Shown: one piece after another, positions 2,655 through 63,700 of the stretch
Position numbering within the stretch: position 1 is the stretch's first letter
How the letters are laid out: each line of letters begins with the position of its first letter
Origin: an uncultured Gammaproteobacteria bacterium
GTDB taxonomy: Bacteria; Patescibacteriota; Microgenomatia; Daviesbacterales; UBA10151
Direction of reading: 5' to 3'
Assembly (NCBI GenBank): GCA_964360965.1
Contig: CAYHYM010000004.1
Span: forward strand, 660-64,659
DNA length: 64,000 bases
Made by a program: the position numbers and the translations under genes
Notes under the pieces: generated by a model
The model's database searches: none
What the model was told of the DNA's origin: nothing
What the model saw: only the letters and a program-made list of their open reading frames with translations

Positions 2655-3893
2655 ATGTCCAAATCACTATTAAATATCTCCACATCTTTGTTAATTATCC
2701 TGGGGTTGTTTATTTATTACGCACCAAATATTGAGGCTGCTTCTGGCACGTGTATCAATAAAGATAGAAAGGGGGTAATTATTTCTACGGCCATTTGGCC
2801 AGATGATGTTCTTATTAATTTGTCAGTAAACGTCACTGTTCAATTTACCAATCAAACAGTTGCGGGTAAATACTTTGTTATCCTAAGCGACGGTAAACCA
2901 ATTGGCGCCCAAGACTACTCATCTCAAATAGTTGATCTTACCACAAGCCAGCTACGAAATGGAATAGAAGTGACTTTCCCTATTGGTCCTGTTACTGAGT
3001 ATAGAGATTCTTACTACGTCAAACTACAAAGAGAGGGGTTTGGAGATATTTGTGAGCCTAGTAATTTAGGCACTATTGCAGTAGCTAACATCAGCGATAA
3101 TAAGCTAAAAAAAACTCAATGTTCCATCTCTGTTCCCGGCAATATTCAAATAGGTGATAACTTAACCATTAAATATAGCGTTTCCAATCCTCCCTCTGAA
3201 AATTCCAGATTTATTCCCCTAATTTTTAAAACAAGTAATTTTGCCAAAATGCCTACAGGTGTTTATAGAGCAACCGGGGCTCCCTTGGGAGATTTTGCCA
3301 ATACCTTAATCACCCCAAAATACTTAAAACAAGACCAGGTAACAGATCTAACCTTTCCCACTGATACAGGCACATTTAATCAAATTGAAAATTTTACAGC
3401 AGCGATGGCAGTTCAGGATGACTCCTCGGTACCAGGAGATGAAGCTAGATTATATATTTGTAAATCCGCTAATTTTAGTACCAGTAATAACCCTACGACT
3501 CCTGCCGGAACTCCTGCTACATCTGCACCTGCTGGTTTTCCAAAAGCCGGTACTGGATCAGGGGGAGGAGAAAAATGTACTTCAGGGTTTTTAGATGAAA
3601 AAAATAATCCTGTGCCGGCAATAGATACTGCCATAGGCTGTGTGCCCACAGAACCGGTGGCTTTTATCAAGGCTTTTTTGCGATTTACCCTGGCCACTTT
3701 TGGAGGGATAGCCTTTTTAATCATGGTAATGGGAGTATTTCGGATGATCACCTCTGCCGGTAACCCTGATGCGCTGAAAGCAGGACAGGAAATGTTTACC
3801 AGTGCCATTATTGGCATTTTATTTATTATCTTTTCCGTACTGCTTTTACAAATAATAGGAGTTGGTATACTAAATATACCTGGATTCAGATGA
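2655..3893 (+). CDS. secreted protein with C-terminal T4SS pilin-like (VirB2/TrbC-like) hydrophobic module
   Basis: Signal peptide; the C-terminal 80 aa (FRMITSAGNPDALKAGQEMFTSAIIGILFIIF) are paralogous to the downstream small pilin-like ORFs. Confidence 0.45.
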   Translation: MSKSLLNISTSLLIILGLFIYYAPNIEAASGTCINKDRKGVIISTAIWPDDVLINLSVNVTVQFTNQTVAGKYFVILSDGKPIGAQDYSSQIVDLTTSQLRNGIEVTFPIGPVTEYRDSYYVKLQREGFGDICEPSNLGTIAVANISDNKLKKTQCSISVPGNIQIGDNLTIKYSVSNPPSENSRFIPLIFKTSNFAKMPTGVYRATGAPLGDFANTLITPKYLKQDQVTDLTFPTDTGTFNQIENFTAAMAVQDDSSVPGDEARLYICKSANFSTSNNPTTPAGTPATSAPAGFPKAGTGSGGGEKCTSGFLDEKNNPVPAIDTAIGCVPTEPVAFIKAFLRFTLATFGGIAFLIMVMGVFRMITSAGNPDALKAGQEMFTSAIIGILFIIFSVLLLQIIGVGILNIPGFR

Positions 3894-4561
3894 AACTAAT
3901 CGCCCAACAAATTCCCGGAATTCCATATTTATTAAACTGTAACCCGGTCAATCAAACAGGCTGTCCACCTGGCCAGAGCGTGCCCAGGACTGGTGCTTTA
4001 AATTTTACCAGCCTGGGGGATTTTATCTTCGGACTCTTAAACATTGTCTTTTCCATTGCCGTATTTTTGGCCTTTTTCTGGCTGGTGTGGGGAGCTTTTC
4101 AATATATTACCTCAGGAGGGAATAAGGAAAGATTGGCTGCTGCCAGGGCCAGAATCACCTGGGCCATTGTGGGATTACTGCTGGTGGCAGTTTCCTTTCT
4201 AGTAGCCCAATTTTTGGCTCAGGTTTTACCTCCCCAAAAAGGAACACCAATTTTGTCAGTACCGACCGCTTATGCTGCTGTTGATATTGGCAAGGAGTAT
4301 GGTTTTGGAGATATCCGGTCTTTAGGAGAAGGGGTCACTAAACTGGTTGCTCCCACCTTTTCCATTGCCACCACGGTGGTGATAATATATTTTTTAATGG
4401 GAGCTTTTAAATTTTTAACCTCAGGAGGGAATAAGGAGGCCACTGCTTCTGCCCGTGGTATGATTACCCATGCCATTGTGGGATTTATTATTTTAATGTT
4501 TGCTTTTTTGATTTTACAATTTATTCCACAAGCTTTTGGCTTAAATTTTTCGTTGTTTTAA
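3890..4561 (+). CDS. VirB2/TrbC-like pilin, tandem-duplicated module
   Basis: Two copies of the motif W.GAF.(Y/F)(I/L)TSGGNKE...AR..IT.AIVG, each followed by a hydrophobic helix; start overlaps the upstream stop (ATGA). Confidence 0.55.
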   Translation: MKLIAQQIPGIPYLLNCNPVNQTGCPPGQSVPRTGALNFTSLGDFIFGLLNIVFSIAVFLAFFWLVWGAFQYITSGGNKERLAAARARITWAIVGLLLVAVSFLVAQFLAQVLPPQKGTPILSVPTAYAAVDIGKEYGFGDIRSLGEGVTKLVAPTFSIATTVVIIYFLMGAFKFLTSGGNKEATASARGMITHAIVGFIILMFAFLILQFIPQAFGLNFSLF

Positions 4562-5055
4562 TGATAAAAAAAATAGTTATTGTAATTTTAATAAATGTCT
4601 TTTTGGGATTAGGGACATCTTCTGTCTATGCTCTTCATGTGCCACCCGGCGCTACTTGTAATCCAATAGACCCGGCAGATCATTGTAACATTGGCTATTC
4701 TTGTCTACCGGTAACAGGTACTCCGGGCCACCAATGCTTAAGACCCCAATCCACAGACACCATTGGTAAAATCAGTGCACCATTAGCCATACAAGCTTTG
4801 GGTATAGGTAATATAGGCATCAGCAAATTTTTAAATAATTTAGTCACCCTAATTTATATTTTAGCCACTGTTGTTTTAGTCTTTATGTTTTTATGGGGAT
4901 CTTTGGAGTGGTTAACATCAGGAGGGGATAAGGAAGCTGTAGGAAGAGCCAGAGGCAGGATTATTAATGCCCTGGTGGGAATTATTCTTTTCGGGGTGGC
5001 TTATGCCATACTGCGGCTGTTGGGAACATTTACCGGCTTTACATTTTTCCAATAA
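4561..5055 (+). CDS. VirB2/TrbC-like pilin paralog
   Basis: Signal peptide plus LWGSLEWLTSGGDKEAVGRARGRIINALVGIILFGVAYAIL motif. Confidence 0.55.
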   Translation: MIKKIVIVILINVFLGLGTSSVYALHVPPGATCNPIDPADHCNIGYSCLPVTGTPGHQCLRPQSTDTIGKISAPLAIQALGIGNIGISKFLNNLVTLIYILATVVLVFMFLWGSLEWLTSGGDKEAVGRARGRIINALVGIILFGVAYAILRLLGTFTGFTFFQ

Positions 5056-5056
5056 A

Positions 5057-5806
5057 TTAAGAACCTCCTCCATAACGAGGTCCTTGCCCTCCACCGCCGC
5101 CTCTTCTACCCTTTCCGAAGAATCTGATAACTCTGATAACCAGGTTCATCAAAAATACCGGTATTGCTATAACTGCTACCAAACTGCCTATTACAGCAAG
5201 AATGGCGCCTGCGGATATACCTACAGTCTTTCCTATCTCCACCACCATCTTGGGTACACCACCTGGTGAGTCAGGTGCTATTTTACGGCCTTCTATATCT
5301 TTGATAAATTCAGCCTCATACTCTTTAGCTTCTTGCTCTGTCTCCTGTCTTGCCCGCTCAAATGCCTTTTTATTTTCTTCCTGCTGTTTTGCATCAGCCT
5401 GAGCAGTTTTTTTTGATTGTTCCCAGATTACTCGCTGCTCAGGGGTCATTTTTTCCAGTAGCTCCATTTCATATGGAGTGAGTGTGGGAACCCTTTCAGG
5501 AGTGGTTACCCCTGGCCTTTCTGTTGCTCTGAGTGTGGAAGTTTTTGTTTCCACTATCTGAACACCAGCTGGTTGTTTTGGCGCCTCTCCCACTACTGGT
5601 GCGGGTTGGCTGGTAGTGTCAGCACTAAGATCCAGACAGGCAGCTGAGAAAAATACCAAACCCACCATGGGAGCTAATAAGGCTACTCTTGAAGCCGGGA
5701 GCGCTTTTCTGGTTCTTACCACAATATCATCTGCCGCTACTATGGCGCTGGATGGTTCTATCAACTCATTTAAAACTGCTGGTTCTGTTTCTTTCATATC
5801 ATCCAT
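5057..5806 (-). CDS. membrane-anchored hypothetical protein with Gly-rich C-terminal tail
   Basis: ORF with an N-terminal and a C-terminal TM helix, a charged coiled-coil middle, and a GGGGGQG tail; no recognisable catalytic motif. Confidence 0.35.
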   Translation of the reverse strand: MDDMKETEPAVLNELIEPSSAIVAADDIVVRTRKALPASRVALLAPMVGLVFFSAACLDLSADTTSQPAPVVGEAPKQPAGVQIVETKTSTLRATERPGVTTPERVPTLTPYEMELLEKMTPEQRVIWEQSKKTAQADAKQQEENKKAFERARQETEQEAKEYEAEFIKDIEGRKIAPDSPGGVPKMVVEIGKTVGISAGAILAVIGSLVAVIAIPVFLMNLVIRVIRFFGKGRRGGGGGQGPRYGGGS

Positions 5807-6107
5807 TCTTAGGTCCTTTTAAAGTTTCCAGATAATCTTTTTTAAAATTTTCCAATTCATGCAAAATTTTTGTCTGAAGAGATGGAATCAGACTGCCTAA
5901 CATATTAATTATCACCTTACCGTCTTTCTGCTTAGTAATTTTCCCCAGTTGTTCTGTGGTAAGATCAGCGGAAAGCCTTAATAACACATACTCGCCTATT
6001 TTACTGTTTAAATGCTGCCGCATCTTATCTGTCTCCTCTGTTGATTGAGAGACGGTATTAATATTCAAAAAAATAATTGGATCAAAATCTTTTAGACTAA
6101 TCAACAT
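5799..6107 (-). CDS. hypothetical protein
   Basis: 102-aa ORF whose 5' end overlaps the 3' end of the 5057..5806 gene; no recognisable motif. Confidence 0.3.
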   Translation of the reverse strand: MLISLKDFDPIIFLNINTVSQSTEETDKMRQHLNSKIGEYVLLRLSADLTTEQLGKITKQKDGKVIINMLGSLIPSLQTKILHELENFKKDYLETLKGPKNG

Positions 6108-6186
6108 ATTAATCCTATAGATATATTATACCACAAATTTAGCACTTGACAAATAGATAACTTACTGCATATGATAAAATTAAGAT

Positions 6187-6567
6187 ATGAAAAAAGTTGC
6201 CTCAATTTTCTCTGCCTTTGGTTATCTAATATCTGCAGGAGCAGCTTTTGCTCAAACCATTACCATTGAAAGACCTGAGATCAGCGGCAAAAAGGTGGGC
6301 TTTTTAGATGTCAACCAATTCATCAAAAATGGGGTGACCCTGGCTTTTATTATTGCCCTGGTGATTGTTTTTATTATGCTGGTGTGGGGGTCAATTCAGT
6401 GGATTTTTTCCGGAGGATCAAAGGAGAATCTGGAGGCTGCCAGAAATAGAATCATTCACGCTCTGGTAGGCTTGGCTATTTTGGCGGTGGCTTTTGCCAT
6501 TATTCAGCTTTTTGCCACCTTTGTGGGTGTTAATCTACTTGATCTAAAAGTACCATCTCCAATATAA
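6187..6567 (+). CDS. VirB2/TrbC-like pilin paralog
   Basis: Signal peptide plus MLVWGSIQWIFSGGSKENLEAARNRIIHALVGLAILAVAFAII motif. Confidence 0.55.
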   Translation: MKKVASIFSAFGYLISAGAAFAQTITIERPEISGKKVGFLDVNQFIKNGVTLAFIIALVIVFIMLVWGSIQWIFSGGSKENLEAARNRIIHALVGLAILAVAFAIIQLFATFVGVNLLDLKVPSPI

Positions 6568-6576
6568 TTTTAGAAT

Positions 6577-6861
6577 ATGGGGCCACCTGAAGCTGGTTTA
6601 ACTCAAATTGAAGACACTTTTAAAAATGCCATCTCTGTTTCAGTGGGACTGGCTTTTGTGGCTTTGGTGGTGGTGCTGATCTGGGCAGGCATTAAATTTT
6701 TAACCTCAGGAGGGGAGGCTAAAGCCCTACAGTCTGCCACACAGACCGTCACCTGGGCTCTTCTGGGAATTTTATTTCTGGCCATAGCCTGGCTGGTGTT
6801 GCTGCTGATTAAAATCTTTACCGGAATAGATGTGACAACTTTTAACATTCAGGTTTTATAG
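6577..6861 (+). CDS. VirB2/TrbC-like pilin paralog (divergent)
   Basis: LIWAGIKFLTSGGEAKALQSATQTVTWALLGILFLAIAWLV motif. Confidence 0.5.
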   Translation: MGPPEAGLTQIEDTFKNAISVSVGLAFVALVVVLIWAGIKFLTSGGEAKALQSATQTVTWALLGILFLAIAWLVLLLIKIFTGIDVTTFNIQVL

Positions 6862-6909
6862 TATCAACGTATGTTGCAAAATAACCATTAGTTGTTTTAA
6901 ACTTAAATT

Positions 6910-8505
6910 ATGTCTGTTAAGAAATTAATCTTCAGCTTAGCGGTATCTTTGGCATTTCTTTTGCTACCTGCTACCAACCACCAGCTATTAACTATCTCTG
7001 CTCAAACTACCACTTCCTCTGCCACTGCCTCTACAGCCATCAAACCATTGGGCATAGTCAGCTTTCAATCCCCACAATATATCAACCTGCAAATGATAAA
7101 CCTGATGCACTCTGCCAGTTGCTTGATAAGCGGCATCTCTCCCATAAACCAACCTTGCGTGGAATACATTGGGGGTATCCCCGTACTTTCCTCTGTTAAC
7201 CTATCAGGCGGTATGTTGGGTACTATCAGCACAGGATTGGCACTACTTTATACAAATCCTCCCATCAAAAGCATTGAATACCTGGGTAGTATAGGGGACA
7301 GTTTAAGTTTTTTTGAAGTTAAACAGGCCCAAGCTCAGGTGGGAGGCTCTGGCAGCAAGGTATTATCTCCGGTTTTGGACCTTTGGAAAGTTTCAAGGAA
7401 CATTGCCTATCTAACTATAATGATCATTTTTGTGGTGATTGGGGTGATGGTGATGTTTAGGAACAGAATCAATCCTCAAACAGTCATCACAGTCCAGGCA
7501 GCCCTGCCAGGCCTGGTGATTGGACTCATACTTATTACTTTCAGTTATTTTTTGGCAGCACTATTGGCAGATATTGCTTTTGTGGGCTCAAATATAGTCG
7601 GCCATTATTTTACCATTGCCCAAAGTCAAGCCATCTCTGTCAAAGGACCGGTGAACACTCTAGAAAACGAAAATGTCTTAAGTATCTTTAGCAGATTTTT
7701 TAACACCACCTCCAAAGAACAGTTTATTCCCCTATTTGACACCATCTTTAAAAACCTGCCCACACCAGCCGCTTTAGATATTTTGACTCCTGCCCGTATG
7801 TTTACTTATGTTATTGTGGGAATGACTAACCAAATATTAACCTTAACTGGTATATCCTCTATACCTGTAGCAGGCACTGCTACAGGTATATTTACAGGTA
7901 TTAAAGGACTAACAGATGCACAGGCTACAGGATCATTTTTAGTATGGCTGATCTTAATACTAGTACTGATGTATTCCATGTTTAGAGTACTTTATCGTTT
8001 GATAATCAGTTATTTAACCATCATCTTTTTAACCATCACCGCCCCTTTTCATTTTTTAATTGCCGCTTTCCCGGGAAGACAAGAGGTGGTGACTGTTTGG
8101 GCCAGAAACATGCTGGCCAATATCCTGGTTTTTCCCGGAGTGTTGGCCATATTTTATTTTGCCGGCTATCTGATGGGGCCCACATTATTAACAAGCGCCG
8201 GTGGAGCAGGAGGATTAACTCTTAGTGATCTACTCAATATTAACAATCAATTGGGTGTGGCAGGAGCAAAAACACTGCCGCTTTTGGGAGGATTGGATCA
8301 AACAGTGATCCAGTTAATTCTGGCTTATGGCGCGCTGATTGCCGCACCAGCCATTCCGGAAATTATCATCAATGCCATAGGTAAAGTTGGTCCTGCCGGA
8401 CAGACCATTGGTAGAGAGGTGACTGGAGCTATACAAAGCGGCAGAGGATACCTGCAACAAGGAGCCGGGGCAATTGGTGGAGCCTTGGGAGGCGGTAGAC
8501 GTTAA
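6910..8505 (+). CDS. VirB6/TrbL-like polytopic membrane protein
   Basis: Signal peptide, then at least six hydrophobic helices and a Gly-rich C-terminus; position next to the pilin genes in a T4SS-like locus. Confidence 0.45.
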   Translation: MSVKKLIFSLAVSLAFLLLPATNHQLLTISAQTTTSSATASTAIKPLGIVSFQSPQYINLQMINLMHSASCLISGISPINQPCVEYIGGIPVLSSVNLSGGMLGTISTGLALLYTNPPIKSIEYLGSIGDSLSFFEVKQAQAQVGGSGSKVLSPVLDLWKVSRNIAYLTIMIIFVVIGVMVMFRNRINPQTVITVQAALPGLVIGLILITFSYFLAALLADIAFVGSNIVGHYFTIAQSQAISVKGPVNTLENENVLSIFSRFFNTTSKEQFIPLFDTIFKNLPTPAALDILTPARMFTYVIVGMTNQILTLTGISSIPVAGTATGIFTGIKGLTDAQATGSFLVWLILILVLMYSMFRVLYRLIISYLTIIFLTITAPFHFLIAAFPGRQEVVTVWARNMLANILVFPGVLAIFYFAGYLMGPTLLTSAGGAGGLTLSDLLNINNQLGVAGAKTLPLLGGLDQTVIQLILAYGALIAAPAIPEIIINAIGKVGPAGQTIGREVTGAIQSGRGYLQQGAGAIGGALGGGRR

Positions 8506-10196
8506 AAGCTCTTAATCACTTTTTGCCAAATAAATTTCCCCATTCCCTTAAACAAGAATCCATCAACCAACCATACCCCGTTAACAAAAAAGTTTGTTCC
8601 TGCAGAAGCATTAAAATGTCTCATTAAATCCTCGGCTTGATCCTCACCAGTAGCTCCCTTTGTCTCATTAATTGCCCAGTAAAATTGTGGTCTACCCCAT
8701 CTATTATAAGATTTGGTGAATTCATTGCGAAGTTTTAGTACTCTTTGGCCCTCATCTGTATTAACATAGTTTAAAATCTGTCCCAGAACAAAGGCTCTGA
8801 CTTTTTGTGGTTCTGCAGCACCATAATAGCTCAGAGAATTAAAATTACCAGCAAGCTCATTAAATGATTTTACTATATCAGGCATATTCTTTTCAGGATC
8901 ATCCAAAGCTCTAGCAGGTGATATCAGGGGACTGTTAATAAATCCACCAAGAAGTTTATCTACTAAATCGTTTGTTCCATTAACAATTACAGACCAGCCG
9001 TAAAATGAGGTGTCCGGATTATCTTTAAGTTTATCGCGTAACTCAAGCAGATTTTTACACTTGAGAAAATAGCTTAAAGATCTGGCATGGGTATCAAAGG
9101 CCCCAATCAACTGTCTGGCTTGAACTGCAGAATGTTCTCTACTTGCCAAAAACTCCGGGGTAAATATCAATTTGGTCCAAAGATAGGGGGAATTGCCTGA
9201 TAACTGAGAATATTTACTCCTATCACTACCACTATATTCAAAGTGGTACGCTGGATTTGCCCATTGATTAACCCACTCTCTCCAGTACAGATTATTTGTC
9301 ATATCTATTTTTTGACCCTTAAATACATTATTTAAAATTTGCTGTTCAACTAATTCTCCATCTTTTGTCAGGGGACCAGTAAAACGGGTGATGTCTGCGG
9401 TGGCTATATATAACCTGTAAGTTAACACAGCAGCCAATTCAGCTTGTTTTTTATCTAAACTTTGATTTTTTTGCAGTTGTTCTGATATTTGGTTTATTAT
9501 CATCTCTTTTTCTTTATCACTTTTTTTATAACTTCTAAAAACCTGGCCATTACTTTTTTCCACCCACTCAACTCCCTCTCTGACTCCCTCTATATCCCAT
9601 GTCCAATTAAATGCCTCTCTAAATATAACAGCTGCCACCAATTCTGCAAATTTTGGTCCAGCTCCAAAATTAACAGTCCACTCTGCACCACTCAGACATG
9701 CTCTAACCATGAACATCTTTTGTGCTTTTTCTATTTCCTCTATTTCTTTTTCACCAGCACCTGATCCCATTTTAGCACTCACCAACGTATCAAATAATTC
9801 CTGATATTTATTTATCTCAGCCAGAGGTGACATGTCCTTCGCGCCTACAATATTAGGCATACGGTCTTCTAATCTAATGATTAAAGCATCAGCTATTTTC
9901 TTAATTTGCTCTGGTGTCTGATCTGGTCTAAATGGACCAAGACCTGCAAACATCTCTGCCCCACCTTCCATCCTGGGTATTCTGGCTACTTCTTGACCGG
10001 TTTGTGGATCAAAATAAACATGGTACTTCCCTTCTACTTTAGAAGGATAATCTACCTGGGGATTTAGTTCTGGAGAACGAGTCGCCCCCACAACACTTTT
10101 TCCTGCTTCAGGAACCACCTCTTTTACTATTGGAGTAGGATTAGGTGATTCATTTTCCGGACTATCTGATCCCTCTGCCATAATCTCTCTAGCCAT
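8502..10196 (-). CDS. hypothetical protein (564 aa), embedded in T4SS-like locus
   Basis: Long ORF with no recognisable Walker or other catalytic motifs; overlaps the VirB6-like gene end by 4 nt. Confidence 0.4.
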   Translation of the reverse strand: MAREIMAEGSDSPENESPNPTPIVKEVVPEAGKSVVGATRSPELNPQVDYPSKVEGKYHVYFDPQTGQEVARIPRMEGGAEMFAGLGPFRPDQTPEQIKKIADALIIRLEDRMPNIVGAKDMSPLAEINKYQELFDTLVSAKMGSGAGEKEIEEIEKAQKMFMVRACLSGAEWTVNFGAGPKFAELVAAVIFREAFNWTWDIEGVREGVEWVEKSNGQVFRSYKKSDKEKEMIINQISEQLQKNQSLDKKQAELAAVLTYRLYIATADITRFTGPLTKDGELVEQQILNNVFKGQKIDMTNNLYWREWVNQWANPAYHFEYSGSDRSKYSQLSGNSPYLWTKLIFTPEFLASREHSAVQARQLIGAFDTHARSLSYFLKCKNLLELRDKLKDNPDTSFYGWSVIVNGTNDLVDKLLGGFINSPLISPARALDDPEKNMPDIVKSFNELAGNFNSLSYYGAAEPQKVRAFVLGQILNYVNTDEGQRVLKLRNEFTKSYNRWGRPQFYWAINETKGATGEDQAEDLMRHFNASAGTNFFVNGVWLVDGFLFKGMGKFIWQKVIKSF

Positions 10197-10232
10197 CTTC
10201 CTTTCCTCCGTCTATAGTATATTATACCATAC

Positions 10233-11096
10233 TTATGGCTTCCAACCGCATTGGGGACAATTGGTTAACTGCCCTGCCTGAATTTTTTTCACTTCTTCAT
10301 CATTGGCCACCCAAGAACATATGTTACAACAAATCTCAGGACAGTTCTCTGAGGAGTTGGAGTGGGCCAAAAAGGCCTTAAAAGCAGTTAATCCATCCAT
10401 TCTAATGGGACAGCTGATAACCACACCCTGTCCAAACATATCTCTTACTTGTTCTGCATTAAAAAAGCTATCATAGATCCTCTCAGCTTGTTCCAAAGCT
10501 TTTTCTTGATCTTTTAAATCCTGACCTGTTTTTATCTTTTCCCAAATCTCCGGAGCTACAATTAACTCTTTGAGGGTGTCTATCCAATCCCCGGCGCTGA
10601 AAATTAAAGGAGTAGATCTGACTGAATTTAAGCTCAACAAAAGAGGCCTATTTTGACTTCGCTCAGCCAAAGCTTGAGCCCGCTCCAAACAATCCTCATA
10701 TCTTAAGTTTAATATGATGGCTCTGTTAAGCAACCTTTTTTGACTGTTTGGGTGTAAAATTTCACTAATAATTAGTTTAGATGTGGGATAATATACTGAG
10801 TCCTGAGGACTGATCCAAACCGCTGCACCTGCCTCACTATCCCTAAACCATCTATTAATAAAATCAAAAGCCTGACCTTCTAATTGACCCACCAAATTAT
10901 CTCTTTTAATAATACTGGCAACTTTACATTCCGCGGTTGGGGAATATAAATCACCATCTTTATCTTGCACAAAACAGTAAGCATCGGGAGATCTTCTTGA
11001 TTCCTGGAGGCAGGAGGTTATCTCCGGGATCGCTTGTGTTCTATTATCTTTCCAGGAAGGAGCGAAATCTTTAATTAATGTATCAGCTTCAAGCAT
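10233..11096 (-). CDS. hypothetical protein with C-terminal Cys-rich zinc-ribbon-like motif
   Basis: C-terminal CPEICCNICSW...CPQCGW; otherwise no recognisable domain. Confidence 0.4.
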   Translation of the reverse strand: MLEADTLIKDFAPSWKDNRTQAIPEITSCLQESRRSPDAYCFVQDKDGDLYSPTAECKVASIIKRDNLVGQLEGQAFDFINRWFRDSEAGAAVWISPQDSVYYPTSKLIISEILHPNSQKRLLNRAIILNLRYEDCLERAQALAERSQNRPLLLSLNSVRSTPLIFSAGDWIDTLKELIVAPEIWEKIKTGQDLKDQEKALEQAERIYDSFFNAEQVRDMFGQGVVISCPIRMDGLTAFKAFLAHSNSSENCPEICCNICSWVANDEEVKKIQAGQLTNCPQCGWKP

Positions 11097-11100
11097 GTTA

Positions 11101-11160
11101 GCGTCCTGCGACGCACCAGACAGTGCATCGTCATGAACCTTACATGGTTCGTCACCGCTT
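11101..11160. repeat. GC-rich element in the intergenic region between divergent T4SS-locus genes
   Basis: gcgtcctgcgacgcaccagacagtgcatcgtcatgaacc... shares the tcctgcgac and gtcat motifs of family 1. Confidence 0.5.
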
Positions 11161-11258
11161 AGTCAAGATATCAATCATAAGTTATTAGTTTAAAACTGAT
11201 TGTCATAGATTGCCCTATAATGATACTTTTTTAGGCTCTTGCACAGTACTTTTTCACA

Positions 11259-12266
11259 TTGTATGATCGTGTGAGTATGGAACCGCATCCCATTCCCCAA
11301 AATGTCACCTCGTTTGAGTTTCATCTGGTGGGTGACATGACCTTAAAACAATTTATGTTTTTATCATCAGGTTTGGGGGTATCTTATCTGTTATTTGTTT
11401 TTCTCTCTCCCCAAAACCCGTTTCTGGCCTATCCTTTAATTCTGCTGTTTTCCTTTTTAGGAGTGGCTTTTGCTTTTATGGGCATTGCTGACCGGTCTTT
11501 AGATCATTGGCTTTGGGTTTTCATCAAAGCAGTTTTCTCCCCCACCAAAAGAGTCTGGGGAAAGGCAGGTAAATCGTATGCTCAAAATAACCTGTTTTCC
11601 CAAAGGAGCGCTTTTTTTAACCAGGTAGTCCAAACATCATCCTCCCCTTTTGAGCCAATAACCTCTCCTGTTGCTCAAACAAATGTCCAGCCCCTGCCCA
11701 CAGAAGAGGAGCTGCAAAAAACAGTGACTTTGGCCAGAGAGGCCCAAAGTTTGCAGACTAGAATTATTGAATCAGAAAGACAGCTGGAAAGCATCAAGGT
11801 CACTCCCCAAAATATTTCACCCCAGCAAATTGAGGCAACCTTATCAACCTTACAAAAACTGGTCACTGAAACTTCCGGTATTAAAGAACAACTACTCAGA
11901 GCCACTCACCAAAAAGAGCAGCCAAAGCCTTCTGAAGTCAAAATCACTCCCGCCTCTTTTCAAAGACCAATACAGGCGGTGCTAACTTCCCTGCCCAATG
12001 TGATAAATGGTGTTGTCAAAGATGCTTTGGGCAATTTTTTGGAAGGGGTGGTGGTGGTAATTTATAACAAAGAAGGCCTGCCAGTCAGAGCCTTAAAAAC
12101 CAATAAACTGGGTCAGTTCTCAGGCTCCACCCCCTTGCCAAACAACAGTTACAGAATTGAACTGGAAAAGGATGATCTGTTATTTGATATTTTGCAAATA
12201 GATTTAACAGGCCTGGTTTTACCTGCCATGGAAATTTTATCTAAAAAAAGGGTTTTTCAGACATGA
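11259..12266 (+). CDS. PrgI/VirB3-like T4SS membrane protein with long C-terminal extension
   Basis: N-terminal FEFHLVGDMTLKQFMFLSSGLGVSYLLFVFL followed by a second TM helix, resembling the PrgI/VirB3 family; directly upstream of VirB4. Confidence 0.45.
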   Translation: MYDRVSMEPHPIPQNVTSFEFHLVGDMTLKQFMFLSSGLGVSYLLFVFLSPQNPFLAYPLILLFSFLGVAFAFMGIADRSLDHWLWVFIKAVFSPTKRVWGKAGKSYAQNNLFSQRSAFFNQVVQTSSSPFEPITSPVAQTNVQPLPTEEELQKTVTLAREAQSLQTRIIESERQLESIKVTPQNISPQQIEATLSTLQKLVTETSGIKEQLLRATHQKEQPKPSEVKITPASFQRPIQAVLTSLPNVINGVVKDALGNFLEGVVVVIYNKEGLPVRALKTNKLGQFSGSTPLPNNSYRIELEKDDLLFDILQIDLTGLVLPAMEILSKKRVFQT

Positions 12267-12982
12267 ATACCACCCAGCAACATCTTCAGATGGAGGATAT
12301 AAAAGATGATCTGATGATTTTGAAAAATGGCGGAGCGGCTTTGATTTTACAAAGCTCAGCTTTAAATTTCGGGCTGTTATCAGAGGTTGAACAACACTCA
12401 GTGGTGTTGTCTTTTGCCCAGATGCTCAATTCCCTGTCTTTTCCCATCCAGATTATGATTTATTCCCAAAGGCTCAATATTAACTCATATCTTCATTTGT
12501 TGGAGCGAGCCCGAACAATGCAGAGGAATCCCCTTCTTTCTCAAATGATTGACCGTTATAAAAACTTTGTGACTCAGGTTATTAAAGAAAATGATGTTTT
12601 GGATAAAAAATTTTATGTCATAGCCTATACCTCTTCTTTGGAGATGGGATTTGGTTTTAAAAATAAGGAGGCAAGATTAAAAAGAGCTCAAGCCATACTT
12701 TGGCCAAGAAGGGATCAGCTGATAAGGCAACTGGCCCGAGTGGGGCTAAAAGCAAACCAGCTGACCAGCCTGGAAATGCTGCAGCTTTTATATGATATTT
12801 ATAACGGGGCGCAGCAGGATGTTCTACAAATTCCTCCTGTCAAACTTTCTCCCCCTCCACCTCCCCCAAACCCACCCCGGCCAAATCCAGTTCAAACAGC
12901 AGCTGCGCCACCTTCGCAAACTATTATAAATCAACCTAAAAATCACCCTTTTGTGGTGGAGGAACTGGAGGATAATGTTTAA
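12263..12982 (+). CDS. VirB4-like ATPase, N-terminal domain (separate ORF or frameshifted fragment)
   Basis: Resembles the CagE/TrbE/VirB4 N-terminal domain; Pro-rich C-terminal tail; overlaps the next ORF (ATGTTTAA start/stop overlap). Confidence 0.4.
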   Translation: MNTTQQHLQMEDIKDDLMILKNGGAALILQSSALNFGLLSEVEQHSVVLSFAQMLNSLSFPIQIMIYSQRLNINSYLHLLERARTMQRNPLLSQMIDRYKNFVTQVIKENDVLDKKFYVIAYTSSLEMGFGFKNKEARLKRAQAILWPRRDQLIRQLARVGLKANQLTSLEMLQLLYDIYNGAQQDVLQIPPVKLSPPPPPPNPPRPNPVQTAAAPPSQTIINQPKNHPFVVEELEDNV

Positions 12983-14705
12983 GGGCACACCCCAATTAAC
13001 CCTGGAGGATATCATCGCCCCCCAAGAACTGGAGATTGATTTTAATCATCTTAAAATCAATGACAGATTTTACCGCACCTATTTTATCTCCAGCTACCCG
13101 CGATTTGTGGAGCCTAACTGGCTGGAACCTTTAATTTCTTTTGACCATTCGCTTTTTATCTCCATGTTTGTCTATCCCACCTCATCCAGGGGGGTGCTGG
13201 ATGATCTACGGCGCAAAATTGCCGAGATGGAAGCCACCATAGAAGGTGATGTTGAGCGTGGACGGGAAATTGATCCAACAGTCAGAGTGGCTTTGGAGGA
13301 TGCCCAGTCTTTACAGGAAGAACTGGTTAGGGGGGTGGAGAGATTTTTCCAGTTTGCCCTCTATATCAGCGTGCCTGCCCAAGATAAGGAGGATTTGCAA
13401 AATACCTGCCAGCTTTTTGAATCCACTGCCTCCTCTTTGTCTTTGAGCGCCCAGCCAGCCAGCCTGCAAATGGAAGATGGCTTTAAATCCAGTCTGCCTT
13501 TGGGATCTGACCTGTTGTATCTGACCCATAATATGGACACCCCAGCTCTCTCCACCACTTTTCCTTTTGCTTCGTCGGAGCTGACAGCCAATGAGGGAGT
13601 GATGTATGGCATCAATGCGCATAATGACTCCCTGATTCTTTTTGACAGGTTTTCTTTAGAGAATGCGAATTCAGTGGTGTTTGCCAAATCCGGCGCGGGA
13701 AAATCATATTTTGTTAAACTGGAAATTTTAAGGTCTTTAATGTTTGGCACGGAAATTTTGGTGATTGATCCTGAGAATGAATATTTAAACCTGTGCCAGG
13801 CAGTGGGAGGCGAATATATTAACTTTTCCGCCACCTCTGCTGTTAAGATCAATCCTTTTGATCTGTCTTTAAGCTTATCTCCTGAGGAAAATGAGCTGGG
13901 CAGAAAGATATTATCTTTGACCGCCTTTTTAAAACTGGTGTTGGGCCAGCTAAACCCCCAGGAGGCGGCCATTTTGGATCGGGCTTTAAAACAAACCTAC
14001 AGGTTAAAAGGCATCACTGATGACCCTAAAACCCAAATTCAGCCCCAGATAAGCACCCCTTTAATGGAGGACCTTTATAAAATACTCATCGGTATTGAAG
14101 AAAAACCGGCTCTGGATCTGGCAGCACGCTTAGAAAGATTTATCAAAGGCTCGCTGACCGGTATTTTCTCCTCTCACTCAAACATCAATCTGTCCTCCTC
14201 TTTCACTGTTTTTTCCATCCGGAATCTGGCAGACCAGCTGCGGCCTTTGGCCATATTTATGATCCTGGAATATATCTGGACTAAAATACGCTCACAGCTT
14301 AAAAAAAGAATCCTGGTGGTTGATGAAGCCTGGTATTTGATGAGAAATGAGGATTCGGCCAATTTTCTGGTGGATATTGCCAAAAGAGCCCGTAAGTATT
14401 TTTTGGGACTGACCACCATCACCCAGGATGTGGAGGATTTTTTAGGTACTGACCGGGGCAAAGAAATCATTGCCAATTCCTCCATTCAGGTACTTCTTAA
14501 ACAAGCCCCATCATCCATTGAAAAAGTGGGGGGGACATTTAATCTGTCAGAGGGAGAAAAAAGGCTGCTTTTATCAGAAGGGGTGGGAGAGGGACTCTTT
14601 TTTGCCGGCAATACTCATGTGGCCATGAGAGTGGTGGCCTCACCAGAAGAACACAAATTAATTACCACCAGTCCGCAGGAAATATTGGCAAGACAAAACA
14701 TTTAG
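12951..14705 (+). CDS. VirB4/TrbE/PrgJ-like T4SS ATPase (C-terminal two-thirds)
   Basis: Walker A AKSGAGKSYF, Walker B LVVDEAWYLM, and the surrounding VirB4-type conserved blocks. Confidence 0.75.
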   Translation: MWWRNWRIMFKGTPQLTLEDIIAPQELEIDFNHLKINDRFYRTYFISSYPRFVEPNWLEPLISFDHSLFISMFVYPTSSRGVLDDLRRKIAEMEATIEGDVERGREIDPTVRVALEDAQSLQEELVRGVERFFQFALYISVPAQDKEDLQNTCQLFESTASSLSLSAQPASLQMEDGFKSSLPLGSDLLYLTHNMDTPALSTTFPFASSELTANEGVMYGINAHNDSLILFDRFSLENANSVVFAKSGAGKSYFVKLEILRSLMFGTEILVIDPENEYLNLCQAVGGEYINFSATSAVKINPFDLSLSLSPEENELGRKILSLTAFLKLVLGQLNPQEAAILDRALKQTYRLKGITDDPKTQIQPQISTPLMEDLYKILIGIEEKPALDLAARLERFIKGSLTGIFSSHSNINLSSSFTVFSIRNLADQLRPLAIFMILEYIWTKIRSQLKKRILVVDEAWYLMRNEDSANFLVDIAKRARKYFLGLTTITQDVEDFLGTDRGKEIIANSSIQVLLKQAPSSIEKVGGTFNLSEGEKRLLLSEGVGEGLFFAGNTHVAMRVVASPEEHKLITTSPQEILARQNI

Positions 14706-18935: not shown

Positions 18936-20267
18936 TTATCCGGTGGATAAATTATTTTTGACTTCCCCCAGTATCCGCTGGACATCTTTGTCAGTGTCTG
19001 CCAGTTTTTTTATTTTATCCCTCCCATGCATGACAGTGGTATGGTCCCTGTTGCCTAAAATTTGTCCTATTTTTTCAACTGTTAAATTTAGGTGCTCGCT
19101 TAAGATAAACATAGTTATATGTCTTGGTAGAACCAACTCTTTTTGTCTTCTTGATCCGATCAAATCTTTTTGGCTTAAATTAAAGTAATCGCAAATAGTT
19201 GTTAAAACAAGTTTTGGGTCTACTTTTAGATTATTTTTGGGAGTTGTTTGTAAATGCAGGCTGATATTTTCGGTGGTTGGGGGTAAGTTCTGGGTCTTTA
19301 AAATCTGCAAAATCTGAACAAGCCGCCCCTCCAGCTCTCTGATGTTTGTATTATATGATGAGGCCAAAAGCTGTAGCGCTTCCTCTGATAAAACCGCTCC
19401 CTGCTGCAAACATTTGGCGCGCAGTATGGCAACTCTGGTGTCAAAATCAGGCGGCTGGATATCAATCATCAGCCCTCCTGCAAAGCGTGATTTTAGCCTG
19501 TCCTCAAGTTTTGCTATCTCATTGGGAGAGCGATCTGATGTTAAAATAACCTGGGAATTTTTTGAAATTAGCTCATTAAATGTGTGGAAAAACTCTTCCT
19601 GTGTTCCCTCTCGTCCTGAAAAAAACTGGATATCATCTATCAGTAAAACATCCAGGGAGCGGTATTTGGCACGCAGAGCACCCATCTTGTGTGTTTGTAT
19701 TGCTTCAACATAATCGTTCATAAATTTTTCAGATGGAGAGTAGATAATTTTGATGTGTGGTTTTTTGTCAAGGATGGCGTTGCCAATGGCAAGCATCAGG
19801 TGGGTTTTGCCCACCCCTGTGCCGCCATAAATAAAAAGAGGATTGTAAGATAAGCCTGGATTTTGAGCCACAGCCAAAGCTGCCGCATATGCCACATTAT
19901 TGGATAACCCTACCACAAAATTTTCTAAGGTGTATTTGGGATTAAGCGAGTGGGAGGCAACAGGCTCAATAATCTGGAAAAAATCCTCCTCTTTTTGGTC
20001 AGAAAATTTCTCCAACATCCTCACAGTTAAATCAATCTTAACCTTTTGGCCTAAAAGCTTTTCAAAGGTGCGCTCAATTAACTCCAGGTGCCTTTGGCTT
20101 AAAGTTTCTTTGATAAAGGCGTTATGGGCAGACAGAGTGGCAATTCCGTTGTTAAGTGATTGTAGGGCGGTTTTTTGGAAAAAGGTTTTAAAGTTGGCAG
20201 CAGAGACCTGCGGCTTGATGCCCTCTAAAAATTTATGCCAGAGCTTTAAGTTGTCCATGTTGTCCAT
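18936..20267 (-). CDS. dnaA: chromosomal replication initiator DnaA
   Basis: AAA+ Walker A GGTGVGKTHL, DnaA box-binding C-terminal helix-turn-helix region; canonical context next to dnaN and rpmH. Confidence 0.9.
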   Translation of the reverse strand: MDNMDNLKLWHKFLEGIKPQVSAANFKTFFQKTALQSLNNGIATLSAHNAFIKETLSQRHLELIERTFEKLLGQKVKIDLTVRMLEKFSDQKEEDFFQIIEPVASHSLNPKYTLENFVVGLSNNVAYAAALAVAQNPGLSYNPLFIYGGTGVGKTHLMLAIGNAILDKKPHIKIIYSPSEKFMNDYVEAIQTHKMGALRAKYRSLDVLLIDDIQFFSGREGTQEEFFHTFNELISKNSQVILTSDRSPNEIAKLEDRLKSRFAGGLMIDIQPPDFDTRVAILRAKCLQQGAVLSEEALQLLASSYNTNIRELEGRLVQILQILKTQNLPPTTENISLHLQTTPKNNLKVDPKLVLTTICDYFNLSQKDLIGSRRQKELVLPRHITMFILSEHLNLTVEKIGQILGNRDHTTVMHGRDKIKKLADTDKDVQRILGEVKNNLSTG

Positions 20268-20312: not shown

Positions 20313-20383
20313 ATATAGAGAAACTATTAAAAAGTGGATCAAAAATTTTGACAAATCCCAACAAATTCTGGTAAAATTAAAGC

Positions 20384-20521
20384 ATGCCAAAAAGAACCTA
20401 CCAGCCTAAAAAATTAAAAAGATTAAGAAAACACGGGTTTAGAAGCAGAATGGCAACCCATGATGGTGCTAGAGTTCTAAAAAGAAGAAGAGCCAGAGGT
20501 AGAAAAAGACTAACGGTATAA
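20384..20521 (+). CDS. rpmH: 50S ribosomal protein L34
   Basis: Translates to [45 protein letters not shown]; canonical position upstream of rnpA. Confidence 0.85.
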
Positions 20522-20528
20522 GGTTTTC

Positions 20529-20618
20529 GTCATTCCTGCGAATGCAGGAATCCATTTAACAAAAAACGTAAACCCATGCCGCTCAAGTTAATTGGATCCC
20601 GACATTCGTCGGGATGAC
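20529..20618. repeat. GC-rich MITE/RPE-like palindromic element (family 1), 90 nt, termini GTCATTCCTGCG...CGTCGGGATGAC
   Basis: Terminal hairpins attcctgcGAATgcaggaat and atcccgacATTCgtcgggat; reverse complement shares both termini plus the internal aattgga with the 108-nt element inside tsaD. Confidence 0.8.
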
Positions 20619-20624
20619 ACCGCT

Positions 20625-21032
20625 ATGTTACCTAAAACCAAAAGACTAAATCTCAAAACAGATTTTAAATGGGTGGCCTCTGGTAAAAAAATAGACACTA
20701 AGTTTGTCAGGCTTTTTGTTAAAATGGGAGATCCTTCGACCCATTCGATTAACACTCAGGGTCGTACTGAGTGGAATCGAAGTACGACTCGCTCCGCTCG
20801 CTCAGGACCTTTGGTTGGGATTGCTGTTTCAAGTAAGTCTTTTAAAAAAGCAACTCAGCGCAATAGAGCCAAAAGACTTACCTCTGTCGCACTTGAATCA
20901 CTTTATCCTCTTCTCCCTTCCCGCTTAAATATTGTGGCCCTTCCCAAAACTGCCATAATTGGTGTAAAATCACAAGATGTGTTGTTGGACTTGATGAAAT
21001 GTTATGAAAAAAATACTGATTGGTTTAATTAA
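20625..21032 (+). CDS. rnpA: RNase P protein component with an internal repeat-derived insertion
   Basis: LPKTKRL...FVRLFVK...RNRAKRLTS blocks typical of RnpA. The start was trimmed from 20592, since the first 11 codons lie in the family-1 repeat. About 27 aa inserted (GDPSTHSINTQGRTEWNRSTTRSARSGP). Confidence 0.7.
   Translation: MLPKTKRLNLKTDFKWVASGKKIDTKFVRLFVKMGDPSTHSINTQGRTEWNRSTTRSARSGPLVGIAVSSKSFKKATQRNRAKRLTSVALESLYPLLPSRLNIVALPKTAIIGVKSQDVLLDLMKCYEKNTDWFN
20742..20817. repeat. GC-rich element (family 2, TCCTTCGAC...CGCTCGCTCAGGA) inserted in-frame in rnpA
   Basis: Same ends as the 28-nt copy at 34106..34133; locally GC-rich compared with the flanks. Confidence 0.7.
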
Positions 21033-30736: not shown

Positions 30737-31879
30737 TCAAGCGAGGGATAAATTGGGATCTGCCTGAAGTTTTAAAGGATTTGGGATGGGTTTTTGGAAA
30801 AATCCAGCTGCTGCAATCATGGCTCCGTTATCTGTACACAAGTCTGGTGGAGGAATATATAATTTAATATTTGAATTCAAACTGTCCACTGTAACCTGTA
30901 ACCTGTCAACTAACTTTTTATTTGCAGCCACACCGCCGGCAATCATGATATTTTTCACAGGATGAACTTTTAATGCCTGGATTACTTTTTCTACTAAAGA
31001 TTCAACTATGGTATTTTCAATAGCAGCAGCCAGATCTTGCTTCACCTCCGAGGAGTCAAAGCCCACCTCGGAGGTGTGTACCAGGTTTGCTACTGCAGTT
31101 TTTAAGCCTGAATAAGAGAAATCAAAATCTTTTGATCCCTTCATAGGAATGGGAAGTTTAAATCTATTTGGATTACCTTTTTGAGCCAGTTTGGAAATTT
31201 CCGGTCCTCCTGGATAGGAAAGTCCTAATAATCTGGCACATTTATCAAAGCACTCACCTGCCGCATCATCCCTGGTGCCACCTAAATAATCATACTTGCC
31301 ATGACTGGTAAAAAGCACTAAATCCGTATGCCCACCTGAAACCAGTAAGCCTAAACAAGGAAATACTGGTACTTCACCTCCGGGATGTTCTGTTTGAATC
31401 CAGTTGGCATAAAAGTGGCCAAGTAAATGGTTAACTGGTATTAATGGTTTATTCCAAACTAAGGCTAGAGTTTTGGCTGTTTCTACTCCCACCAAAAGGG
31501 ATCCAATCAGTCCTGGACCGTATGTGACAGCTATGGCATCAATTTTCTTTATTCTGTCATCCCGACGAATGTCGGGATCCAATTCCGAACGTGACTTTGT
31601 TAATTGGATTCTCCTCGAGTCTGAGCGACCTCGGAGTCGAAGACCTGCATTCGCAGGAATGACATCGGGAAAGATTTGACTTAGTGCTTCCTCAATTACC
31701 GGAATAATGCTTTTGATCTGTTCCCTGGCAGCTTGTTCCGGAATAATTCCTCCATATTTGGCTTGTAAATTAGCTGATGATGCTACGACATTGGATAATA
31801 TTTTTACTCCATCTTTATCCTTTATCAATATAGCAACTGCTGTCTCATCGCAACTAGTTTCAATACCGAGTATTATCAT
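30737..31879 (-). CDS. tsaD: tRNA N6-adenosine threonylcarbamoyltransferase TsaD (Kae1/Gcp) with a 36-aa in-frame repeat insertion
   Basis: MIILGIETSCDET...HLLGH...GGVAANK blocks; length about 380 aa against a typical 340. Confidence 0.85.
   Translation of the reverse strand: MIILGIETSCDETAVAILIKDKDGVKILSNVVASSANLQAKYGGIIPEQAAREQIKSIIPVIEEALSQIFPDVIPANAGLRLRGRSDSRRIQLTKSRSELDPDIRRDDRIKKIDAIAVTYGPGLIGSLLVGVETAKTLALVWNKPLIPVNHLLGHFYANWIQTEHPGGEVPVFPCLGLLVSGGHTDLVLFTSHGKYDYLGGTRDDAAGECFDKCARLLGLSYPGGPEISKLAQKGNPNRFKLPIPMKGSKDFDFSYSGLKTAVANLVHTSEVGFDSSEVKQDLAAAIENTIVESLVEKVIQALKVHPVKNIMIAGGVAANKKLVDRLQVTVDSLNSNIKLYIPPPDLCTDNGAMIAAAGFFQKPIPNPLKLQADPNLSLA
31556..31663. repeat. 108-nt family-1 GC-rich MITE/RPE-like element inside tsaD (termini GTCATCCCGACG...CGCAGGAATGAC)
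   Basis: First 29 nt and last 23 nt are identical to the reverse complement of the rpmH-rnpA copy; multiple of 3; encodes ...LDPDIRRDD... in frame. Confidence 0.85.
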
Positions 31880-36344: not shown

Positions 36345-36540
36345 GCCCAACTTAACTTCAGCTAAAGTGTTGTGTTTATGAAATCCATTAGAGGGGATCG
36401 ACTCAAATAGCTTAATCGACGATATCCGTATTGGATTAAAAGGCATGGCCATAAGTTTTTCCATTTCCACTTCTAATTTTTGATCTACTTTTAAATGGTT
36501 GTTGAGCTTGGAAATATTGAAATCTTCACTTTTGATAAAG
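36345..36540. repeat. partial duplicate of the thpR 3' end (about 196 nt, same orientation as thpR)
   Basis: Near-identical to 41945..42125, including a 75-nt perfect stretch aaaaggcatggccataagtttttccatttccacttctaatttttgatctacttttaaatggttgttgagcttgg. Confidence 0.85.
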
Positions 36541-40052: not shown

Positions 40053-40354
40053 AAAGTGATATTAAGACAACCGGAGTAATGGCGCTTGACTGGGCAGCGG
40101 CTCAGGGAGATTTGCACGAGATTCAAAGGTTAGTCGCATCCGGCGCAGATTTGAACGAAGGTGATTATGATGGGAGAACCGCAATACATCTGGCAGCCTC
40201 GGAAGGACAGGAAGAAATTGTCAGGTATTTAATTGCGAAAGGTGTAAATATTAATCCTAGGGATCGTTGGGGTGGGACACCTTTAGCTGATGCCATGAGA
40301 GGTAACCACACCAAAGTTATAGAGCTTTTGAAAAAACATAATGCACAGAAATAA
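40049..40354 (+). CDS. stand-alone ankyrin-repeat protein, tandem duplicate of the glutaminase ANK module
   Basis: About 70% identical to the last 95 aa of the upstream ORF; ATGA start/stop overlap. Confidence 0.65.
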   Translation: MKSDIKTTGVMALDWAAAQGDLHEIQRLVASGADLNEGDYDGRTAIHLAASEGQEEIVRYLIAKGVNINPRDRWGGTPLADAMRGNHTKVIELLKKHNAQK

Positions 40355-41479: not shown

Positions 41480-41530
41480 CCCAAGTTTAACTTCAGCCAG
41501 AATGTTATGTTTATGGAAGCCATTTTTGTA
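41480..41530. repeat. second short copy of the thpR 3'-terminal sequence
   Basis: tttaacttcagccagaatgttatgtttatggaagcc against the thpR end tttacttcagctaaagtattatgtttgtggaaacc. Confidence 0.55.
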
Positions 41531-41534
41531 GAAA

Positions 41535-41654
41535 TCAAAGTAATTCTTTAAGTTCATCTATGGAAATTTCCACTGACTTTAAAATACTCATTAGAGTTTT
41601 TCTTTTGAGAGCTTTAATGACCTCCTTTGGCTTAACAACTGGAATTTTGGGCAT
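41535..41654 (-). pseudogene. hicA: HicA toxin remnant with internal deletion
   Basis: Translates to MPKIPVVKPKEVIKALKRKTLMSILKSVEISIDELKELL: the N- and C-terminal segments of the intact 74-aa HicA at 63179..63403 are fused and the central GSH region is missing. Confidence 0.55.
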
Positions 41655-41918: not shown

Positions 41919-41936
41919 GGAGTTATTATAGCATTT

Positions 41937-63664: not shown

Positions 63665-63700
63665 AGTTTAATTTTACTACTTTTTACTTTCAAAAACTAG

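Follow-up and report, generated by a model that had tools for sequence, protein, structure and literature searches.

A probable CGTC-1-type REP doublet between rpmH and rnpA on a groundwater contig of putative Candidate Phyla Radiation origin

Between rpmH and rnpA of the contig considered here lies a stretch of 90 nt with a hairpin at either end, and the longest open reading frame of rnpA begins inside that stretch. The locus therefore raises two questions: to which kind of element the stretch belongs, and where the translation of rnpA actually starts. The contig was obtained from a groundwater metagenome (Hainich well H51, 0.1 µm filter); by the window we mean the whole 64-kb stretch of its DNA that was analysed. 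As judged from the source names of some of the RnpA and TsaD homologues, the host would be a Microgenomates/Daviesbacteria-like bacterium of the Candidate Phyla Radiation (CPR). A first-pass annotation of the same DNA had regarded the stretch as a MITE-like element with conserved ends and a variable middle, of which a further copy was noted in tsaD.

Structure of the element

The left end, GTCATTCCTGCGAATGCAGGAAT (20529-20551), and the right end, ATCCCGACATTCGTCGGGATGAC (20596-20618), lie exactly where hairpin termini had been placed by that annotation, and the element comprises 90 nt, which become 92 nt (20528-20619) once C20528 and A20619, the unpaired bases of the tags, are counted in. Its parts are the following:

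20528..20554, + strand: left CGTC-1 REP unit, consisting of tag CGTC (20528-20531), stem ATTCCTGC (20532-20539), loop GAAT (20540-20543), stem GCAGGAAT (20544-20551) and tail CCA (20552-20554)
20555..20592, + strand: spacer of 38 nt between the REP units, with complementary ends ATTTAAC...GTTAAT that prolong the pairing of the REP tails
20593..20619, - strand: right CGTC-1 REP unit, consisting of tag TGTC (20619-20616), stem ATCCCGAC, loop GAAT, stem GTCGGGAT and tail CCA (20595-20593)

A CGTC-1 REP is defined by an unpaired CGTC tag (TGTC and CCTC being allowed), an 8-bp stem with complementary A and T at positions 1-2, a 4-nt loop and a 3-nt CCA tail (Di Nocera, De Gregorio & Rocco 2013, BMC Genomics 14:522, PMC3733652). 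The same survey found these units to occur chiefly as inverted dimers with spacers of 20-100 bp whose ends are often complementary, and equated CGTC-1 with Neisseria dRS3 and Rickettsia conorii RPE-6 (Di Nocera et al. 2013, PMC3733652). The present element resembles that class in each of these traits: the tag is CGTC at left and TGTC at right (minus strand), the stems ATTCCTGC/GCAGGAAT and ATCCCGAC/GTCGGGAT are both of 8 bp, start with AT and contain zero mismatches, the 4-nt loop reads GAAT in both units when followed from the tag, the tail is CCA in both, and the two units are inverted, with their tags outward, around a 38-nt spacer with complementary ends. Judged from these traits of its sequence, the 90-nt element is a doublet of two inverted CGTC-1-type REP hairpins, which arrangement makes it a REPIN-like, non-autonomous palindromic repeat. 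Its two partners are, however, non-identical, unlike in CGTC-1, where homodimers predominate.

In its minimum-free-energy fold as RNA the element makes up one long hairpin (-35.1 kcal/mol; z = -6.5 versus shuffles), and its fold as single-stranded DNA, closed by GTCAT/ATGAC, likewise departs from shuffles (z = -4.7). Within an mRNA the doublet could fold either into a single extended hairpin or into three local ones. Four independent assemblies from the same groundwater population (L001-L003, L165) agree fully in the copy upstream of rnpA, which is not an assembly artefact.

The rpmH/rnpA junction: transcription, start codon and insertion

The gene order at the locus is dnaA (minus strand, 18936-20267), rpmH (20384-20521), rnpA, yidD, yidC and a KH/R3H gene, and the features on which the argument turns are these:

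20348..20377, + strand: rpmH promoter, sigma-70-like (TTGACA, 18 nt, TAAAAT, with TG upstream; 11/12 consensus matches)
20384..20521, + strand: rpmH, ribosomal protein L34, 45 aa (ORF; TAA stop 20519-20521)
20625..21032, + strand: rnpA, apparent real coding sequence, 135 aa, MLPKTKRLNLK... (from the homologue alignment)

The orthologue of rpmH in the relative L125 has a Pfam Ribosomal_L34 match. The REP tag begins 6 nt past the rpmH stop, REPs being usually located <20 bp past an upstream stop codon (Di Nocera et al. 2013, PMC3733652), so that the element resembles CGTC-1 REPs in its position as well. On the same strand, the rpmH promoter (20348-20377) is the sole promoter-like site 5' of the element, and inside 20528-20619 neither a promoter-like nor a terminator-like site was found. 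Since no such site intervenes between that promoter and rnpA, we infer that the doublet is a part of the rpmH-rnpA transcript, within which mRNA it would be co-transcribed. The roles of intrinsic terminator and of internal promoter were considered for the element and rejected, no such site having been found and a T-run being absent.

As an observation apart, 6 nt separate the rpmH ATG from the end of the promoter's -10 hexamer (window 20372-20386), with no Shine-Dalgarno motif visible, which spacing and which absence suggest that the rpmH mRNA may be leaderless. At the gathering thresholds Rfam yielded no match in the whole window, and no tRNA or tmRNA genes were found there. Beside the dnaA region, at 3890-14705, a pair of T4SS pilin-like genes, one PrgI-like gene and a gene for a TraG/VirB4-like ATPase constitute a type IV secretion-like or conjugation-like module, which cluster the relative L127 has as well. 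Finally, direct repeats of 95-265 nt with 83-86% identity link the window's 36349-36523, 41483-42118 and 63166-63683, and 39748-40339 holds a tandem pair of 290 nt; duplication of small genes and repeats internal to proteins probably account for them.

With respect to rnpA, the longest ORF does begin within the right hairpin, as the first-pass annotation had pointed out, at a TTG (20592-20594) that overlaps the right REP unit; it reads MDPDIRRDDTAM..., with the initial peptide MDPDIRRDD in the same frame as in tsaD and with ATG 20625 in frame. If that REP-encoded peptide were a real N-terminal extension of RnpA, as in the REP/RPE-decorated proteins of Rickettsia, one could adduce that the frame is open from TTG 20592, which start is also the gene caller's choice, that TsaD accommodates the same sequence in translated form, and that the literature notes expressed N-terminal RPE-1 extensions. 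The homologues nevertheless argue otherwise: 19/19 aligned RnpA sequences share Met-Leu at the position of 20625, with MLPK in 16 of them, and residues precede that Met-Leu in only three aligned rows, the window's included, the other two extensions being unrelated. In addition, TTG 20592 falls in the base-paired tail and stem of the right REP and no purine-rich motif lies upstream, and most REPs at apparent ORF N-termini are annotation artefacts from mis-called starts (Di Nocera et al. 2013, PMC3733652). We consequently find a real extension hardly credible. As had been proposed from the sequence, the alignment places the translation start of rnpA at ATG 20625, with the doublet outside RnpA and the TTG start spurious, the annotation being 11 codons too long.

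The RnpA length is usually 111-112 aa (120 homologues) versus 146 aa for the window ORF, and the excess that is left over arises from a separate in-frame insert within rnpA. This palindromic insert, GATCCTTCGAC...GCTCGCTCAGGACC, unrelated to the doublet, lies in an RnpA loop (window 20733-20810, +) and encodes the peptide DPSTHSINTQGRTEWNRSTTRSARSGP. At the same site the homologues form a graded series, with no insert (GDNQMPRIGIA), with DPSTNSGP or with DPSTGSTSSLQASSGP, which gradation suggests that the insert was built by stepwise nesting.

A comparison of the rnpA 5' ends indicates how the doublet came to its present place. In the relatives L124, L125 and L128, whose RnpA is 60-64% identical to that of the window, there is no doublet, and the rpmH stop overlaps the rnpA start (...GTT TAATG CTT...). 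The gap in the window amounts to 103 nt, namely 7 nt, the 90-nt doublet and 6 nt, so that, relative to the TAATG state, 13 extra bases (GGTTTTC and ACCGCT) lie beside the doublet. The overlap in three relatives marks the rnpA-upstream doublet as a lineage-specific insertion, and we infer that its arrival in this lineage broke a conserved TAATG coupling, the nearest empty-site relatives having only about 60-64% RnpA identity. No target-site duplication was found at the four copies inspected, whose flanks are:

rnpA copy: GGTTTTC...ACCGCT
tsaD copy: CCCGAT...AGAATA
L079 copy: ACTTCT...AAAACT
L154 copy: TGTTTT...AGTAGA

The junction is a recurrent landing place, as is seen from L172, of another Microgenomates lineage, where an unrelated CGTC-type palindrome (2973-3030; reverse complement GTCATTGCGAGGAGCGAAGG...) occupies the same place between rpmH and rnpA and ends in ...GCAATGAC directly 5' of the rnpA ATG. 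The annotated RnpA of L172 (P0083) is extended into that palindrome, with the false N-terminus VWAPFAPRND.

The events at the locus can be pictured in three steps. The doublet would have inserted just past the rpmH stop, thereby splitting the ancestral TAATG overlap; rpmH and rnpA would from then on have been separated by 103 nt, with the translational coupling of rnpA to rpmH broken; and a stable stem-loop would now stand 3' of rpmH, which is the usual position of REPs and the one that goes with their proposed role at the mRNA level. The effect of the insertion was likely neutral or mildly regulatory, though as to the expression of rpmH and rnpA this is conjecture.

The strong predicted structure of the doublet, along with its intercistronic position in a presumably common transcript, could also be taken to mean that it serves the rpmH-rnpA operon as a dedicated cis-regulatory RNA, for example by attenuation, as a leader that binds L34 or as a processing site, for which proposal the unrelated CGTC-type palindrome at the same junction in L172 would speak as well. 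A device of that kind should not, however, be missing from the three relatives with the TAATG overlap, nor should the same sequence recur in the coding regions of tsaD and a FemAB-like gene; there is, furthermore, neither an Rfam match nor a T-run terminator. We accordingly judge a dedicated regulatory function decidedly improbable.

The tsaD copy and other inserts in coding genes

For each of the 23-mer end patterns the window contains exactly one further match, none being expected by chance (100 shuffles). Both matches are on the minus strand and within tsaD; the one at 31641-31663 has 2 mismatches, the one at 31556-31578 has 0. The insert in tsaD is thus indeed the same element, as had been noted, and its features are:

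31555..31664, - strand: second REP doublet, in frame in tsaD, 36 codons (108 nt, 31556-31663), peptide VIPANAGLRLRGRSDSRRIQLTKSRSELDPDIRRDD
31611..31643, - strand: palindrome TCTTCGACTCCGAGGTCGCTCAGACTCGAGGAG, 33 nt, nested in the left REP of the tsaD copy within the 3' arm of the stem, missing from the otherwise collinear 75-nt copy of L131

This copy encodes ...VIPANAG...ELDPDIRRDD..., and the segment ...ELDPDIRRDDR... is shared in frame with the rnpA ORF. Over 30 nt the right REP of the rnpA copy is a perfect match to 31555-31584, and it is unlike the version in L131. Since the two copies have unrelated flanks, a segmental duplication, the alternative that the first-pass annotation had considered, was rejected. 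Less well founded was its statement that the two copies possess a different internal core: minus the 33-nt insert, 68/75 aligned positions are equal (91%), the main difference being a 15-nt indel in the middle of the spacer, and an identity of that degree signifies that the middle is a homologous spacer with indels and not a different core. The nested palindrome keeps the frame (11 codons) and has the motifs CTTCGAC and TCGCTCAG in common with the internal insert of rnpA; the presence of a second palindrome nested in the stem is a trait of this one copy that is unlike CGTC-1 REPs.

The window, L131 and L133, the TsaD proteins of which are 64-67% identical, have an orthologous doublet at one and the same codon of tsaD (nucleotide 216). 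In the right-hand stem three positions differ between the window and L131; two of these have changed on both sides and the third to a G-T/G-U pair. The element as a whole is 88% identical between the window and L131 versus 73% for the flanking coding DNA (p = 0.004), which disparity implies either that the structure is constrained or that homogenisation takes place among the copies of a genome. That the tsaD copy has persisted for long argues, for its part, for low mobility. In two metagenome copies, L145 and L151, the spacer is reverse-complemented with respect to that of tsaD (window 31579-31610), and yet the CCCGAC REP is on the same side; from this comparison, exchange or replacement of REP units seems not to depend on the spacer.

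Several other coding genes hold palindromic repeats in frame. The window's own REP pair recurs at 2891-2965 of L079 within a FemAB-like ORF of another MAG, encoding the peptide VIPANAGIQKTDSSSESDPDIRRDD, and a different CGTC doublet lies in frame in murB in L131 (94-158). In the Microgenomates TsaD (120 homologues, P0121-P0240), three loops repeatedly take in-frame palindromic inserts, after the core positions 69-74, 127 and 231-236; at position 127 an insert is present in 44/120 homologues, the TsaD length ranges from 323 to 417 aa, and many of the inserts encode REP-type peptides (VIPAKAGI..., ...PRNDN, ...RGDD, ...SGMT). A 45-nt palindrome, CCTCCGAGG...CCTCGGAGG, is in frame both in tsaD (31036-31080) and in a TatD-family gene (60186-60230), with 91% complementarity between the copies, and is a third small repeat family in coding sequence.

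Occasional in-frame copies within genes, as well as a mis-called N-terminal start such as that of rnpA, are known from CGTC-1 REPs, and the former recall the RPE of Ogata et al., which are short palindromic repeats lying in frame in conserved genes of a small genome and adding surface-loop peptides that leave the protein intact, as the tsaD copy does. RPE-4 and RPE-6 have, moreover, been equated with CGTC REPs. In-frame insertion was found for the tsaD copy (36 codons), for L079 and for L131, but not for the copy upstream of rnpA, which, unlike an RPE, is intergenic; the classic RPE-1 is also longer (about 100-150 bp) and of other sequence, and the RPE host is an intracellular alphaproteobacterium versus a free or episymbiotic groundwater CPR bacterium in the present case.

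Distribution and propagation of the family

CGTC-1 families comprise tens to thousands of units per genome. The window contains only 4 REP units (two doublets), and more copies, which may or may not belong to this genome, are present in the contigs L146 and L154 of the same metagenome. For a scan across genomes we used a degenerate 23-mer pattern that covers both ends, with three stem pairs free to vary independently. This pattern was encountered at >119 genome loci in at least 15 phyla, with about 1.1 matches expected by chance; the hosts include Gammaproteobacteria, Alphaproteobacteria, Bacteroidota, Ignavibacteria, Actinobacteria, Nitrospinota, Chloroflexota, KSB1, Omnitrophota, Spirochaetes, Daviesbacteria and Gracilibacteria. 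The first-pass annotation was right that a dispersed family with conserved hairpin ends exists. There are copies elsewhere, flanks are not shared, and the family is not specific to this genome. In 134/136 of the matches listed, all three free stem pairs are Watson-Crick, where 1/8 would be expected. Among the loci of the matches listed, the tag is CGTC or TGTC in 243/251 units and the commonest tail is CCA (130/251), tag-outward doublets outnumber tag-inward ones (59 versus 8), and the outermost bases of the doublets are often TG...CA. The exact right-hand REP was found at 38 metagenome loci of G+C 0.35 to 0.72, mostly in distinct contexts by inspection of the flanks, either solitary or with many different partner hairpins. 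Hairpins that are solitary, variously paired and spread over phyla in this manner imply that the supposed termini are independent modules of a pan-bacterial class and not the ends of a genome-specific transposon.

CGTC repeats have been listed in 5 phyla, mainly in Alphaproteobacteria, the CPR being outside that survey (Di Nocera et al. 2013, PMC3733652). A literature search with the sequence words GTCATTCC/GGAATGAC returned irrelevant primer matches only, and in the literature searched no paper was found that links the CPR or Patescibacteria with REP, REPIN or RAYT. The CGTC-tagged REP class is hence extended to the Candidate Phyla Radiation, that is, a known kind of element in a host group for which we found no earlier description. 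Unlike the surveyed CGTC-1 REPs, those of the window have a CPR/Microgenomates host and a low density, with two doublets in 64 kb.

The classification as MITE-like fared less well. A classical MITE would be a deletion derivative of an IS with terminal inverted repeats, mobilised in trans by a DDE transposase, and the element does resemble bacterial MITEs such as the Correia element of Neisseria in being small (90 nt), non-coding and dispersed, with a variable middle and with inverted-repeat ends (17/23 positions of the left end agree with the reverse-complemented right end), as also in the frequent outermost TG...CA; elements of that sort can, in addition, be co-transcribed and alter the expression of a neighbour. 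Against this, MITEs possess target-site duplications and an identifiable parent IS, and there is no flanking direct repeat at the four copies inspected, despite their inverted ends; the supposed terminal inverted repeats are self-contained, autonomous hairpins that occur single, in tandem or with many partners; and the conservation of the 23-mer over phyla with compensatory stem changes would be unexpected for the ends of one IS family. Nor did we find a parent IS with these ends in the window or in the loci fetched, or any transposase in the 64-kb window (Pfam on 40 ORFs; tblastn). In L040, L097 and L099, where REP pairs with outward tags stand 2.6-2.7 kb apart, the genes enclosed are ordinary ones (sulfotransferase, hydroxylase, polyprenyl synthase, acyl-CoA dehydrogenase) and include no transposase. 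For these reasons we deem a classical MITE unlikely indeed.

It could be contended, alternatively, that the hairpins are attachment or target sites for IS110/IS1111-type recombinases or for phage integration, and are kept for that purpose instead of being copied by a RAYT. The Neisseria dRS3 serves as an integration target, and dRS3 is equated with CGTC-1; neither an IS nor a prophage, however, lies in or next to any unit of the window, and such a role would leave the spread of the doublets to new sites unexplained. The chance that this is the correct account is, in our view, very remote.

The comparison with the REPINs of Bertels & Rainey is closer, in that the element comprises two inverted REPs <130 bp apart that can fold as one hairpin, no target-site duplication is present at the four copies, and vertical persistence is long. 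Indeed, a hairpin of the window, ATTCCTGCGAATGCAGGAAT, is nearly the same as the Neisseria REPIN hairpin ATTCCCGCGCAGGCGGGAATC, whose 241 copies have been treated as a REPIN population tied to a Group 2 RAYT; in gonococci that RAYT is frameshifted, and the REPINs decay (bioRxiv 10.1101/2021.07.10.451892). The dissimilarities are that copies lie inside essential genes, which location is unusual for REPINs, and that no RAYT was found in the 64-kb window, a cognate RAYT gene of a REPIN system having a REP or REPIN within about 200 bp. CGTC REPs have, for that matter, been described as lacking a dedicated transposase, the survey having come upon no transposase gene with CGTC repeats at its flanks (Di Nocera et al. 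2013, PMC3733652).

We searched for RAYT genes by tblastn in the fetched loci (~170) and the window, with an approximate E. coli RayT sequence as the query. The one real match was in L008, where a confirmed Y1_Tnp gene (IS200-like/RAYT-like; 4219-4728), the sole such gene near CGTC-like units among the ~170 loci, lies in a composite repeat block (3700-5100) with GTAG-tagged and CGTC-tagged hairpins. Since repeats of both types flank it, the gene cannot be assigned to the CGTC units; the block could, all the same, bear on which enzyme handles CGTC repeats. A weak tblastn match in L135 was rejected as a Y1 transposase because its translation is unlike Y1.

By analogy with REPINs, a HUH/Y1 RAYT would recognise the single-strand hairpin with its unpaired tag, a mechanism that would leave no target-site duplication, and the absence of such duplications fits a single-strand HUH mechanism. 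Spread by a single-strand DNA mechanism with a RAYT-type HUH enzyme is on this analogy the most likely mode of propagation. Taking the parts together, we consider it quite probable that the element is a CGTC-1 REP doublet which, as a lineage-specific insertion past rpmH, is transcribed, lies outside RnpA, and has spread most likely by a RAYT-like single-stranded DNA route.

No new kind of element is revealed by these results; their import lies with the genomes that carry it. REP-derived codons in the Microgenomates tsaD, rnpA, TatD-family, murB and FemAB-like genes distort gene calls, protein lengths and alignments in CPR genomes, and the mis-annotation of rnpA, 11 codons too long in the window, recurs in the sister lineage L172. 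At rpmH-rnpA, an insertion that breaks a conserved TAATG translational coupling provides one clear case, while the tsaD copy indicates that CGTC hairpins can persist for long in surface loops of essential proteins in very small genomes. A further possibility, to which we give tentative and rather doubtful credence, is that CGTC-type REP doublets are maintained in CPR genomes and not merely tolerated. This reading draws on the orthologous tsaD copy kept across three lineages (~65% TsaD identity), on its compensatory stem changes and its 88% versus 73% identity, and on new copies, such as that at rpmH/rnpA, having still arisen in the lineage. If it were true, there would be either selection on the DNA or RNA structure or a still-active system of copying and homogenisation in genomes of ~1 Mb; and these genomes, with their ~1000 genes, would then be perhaps the simplest place in which to identify the enzyme that propagates CGTC REPs, a question that the 2013 survey left open.
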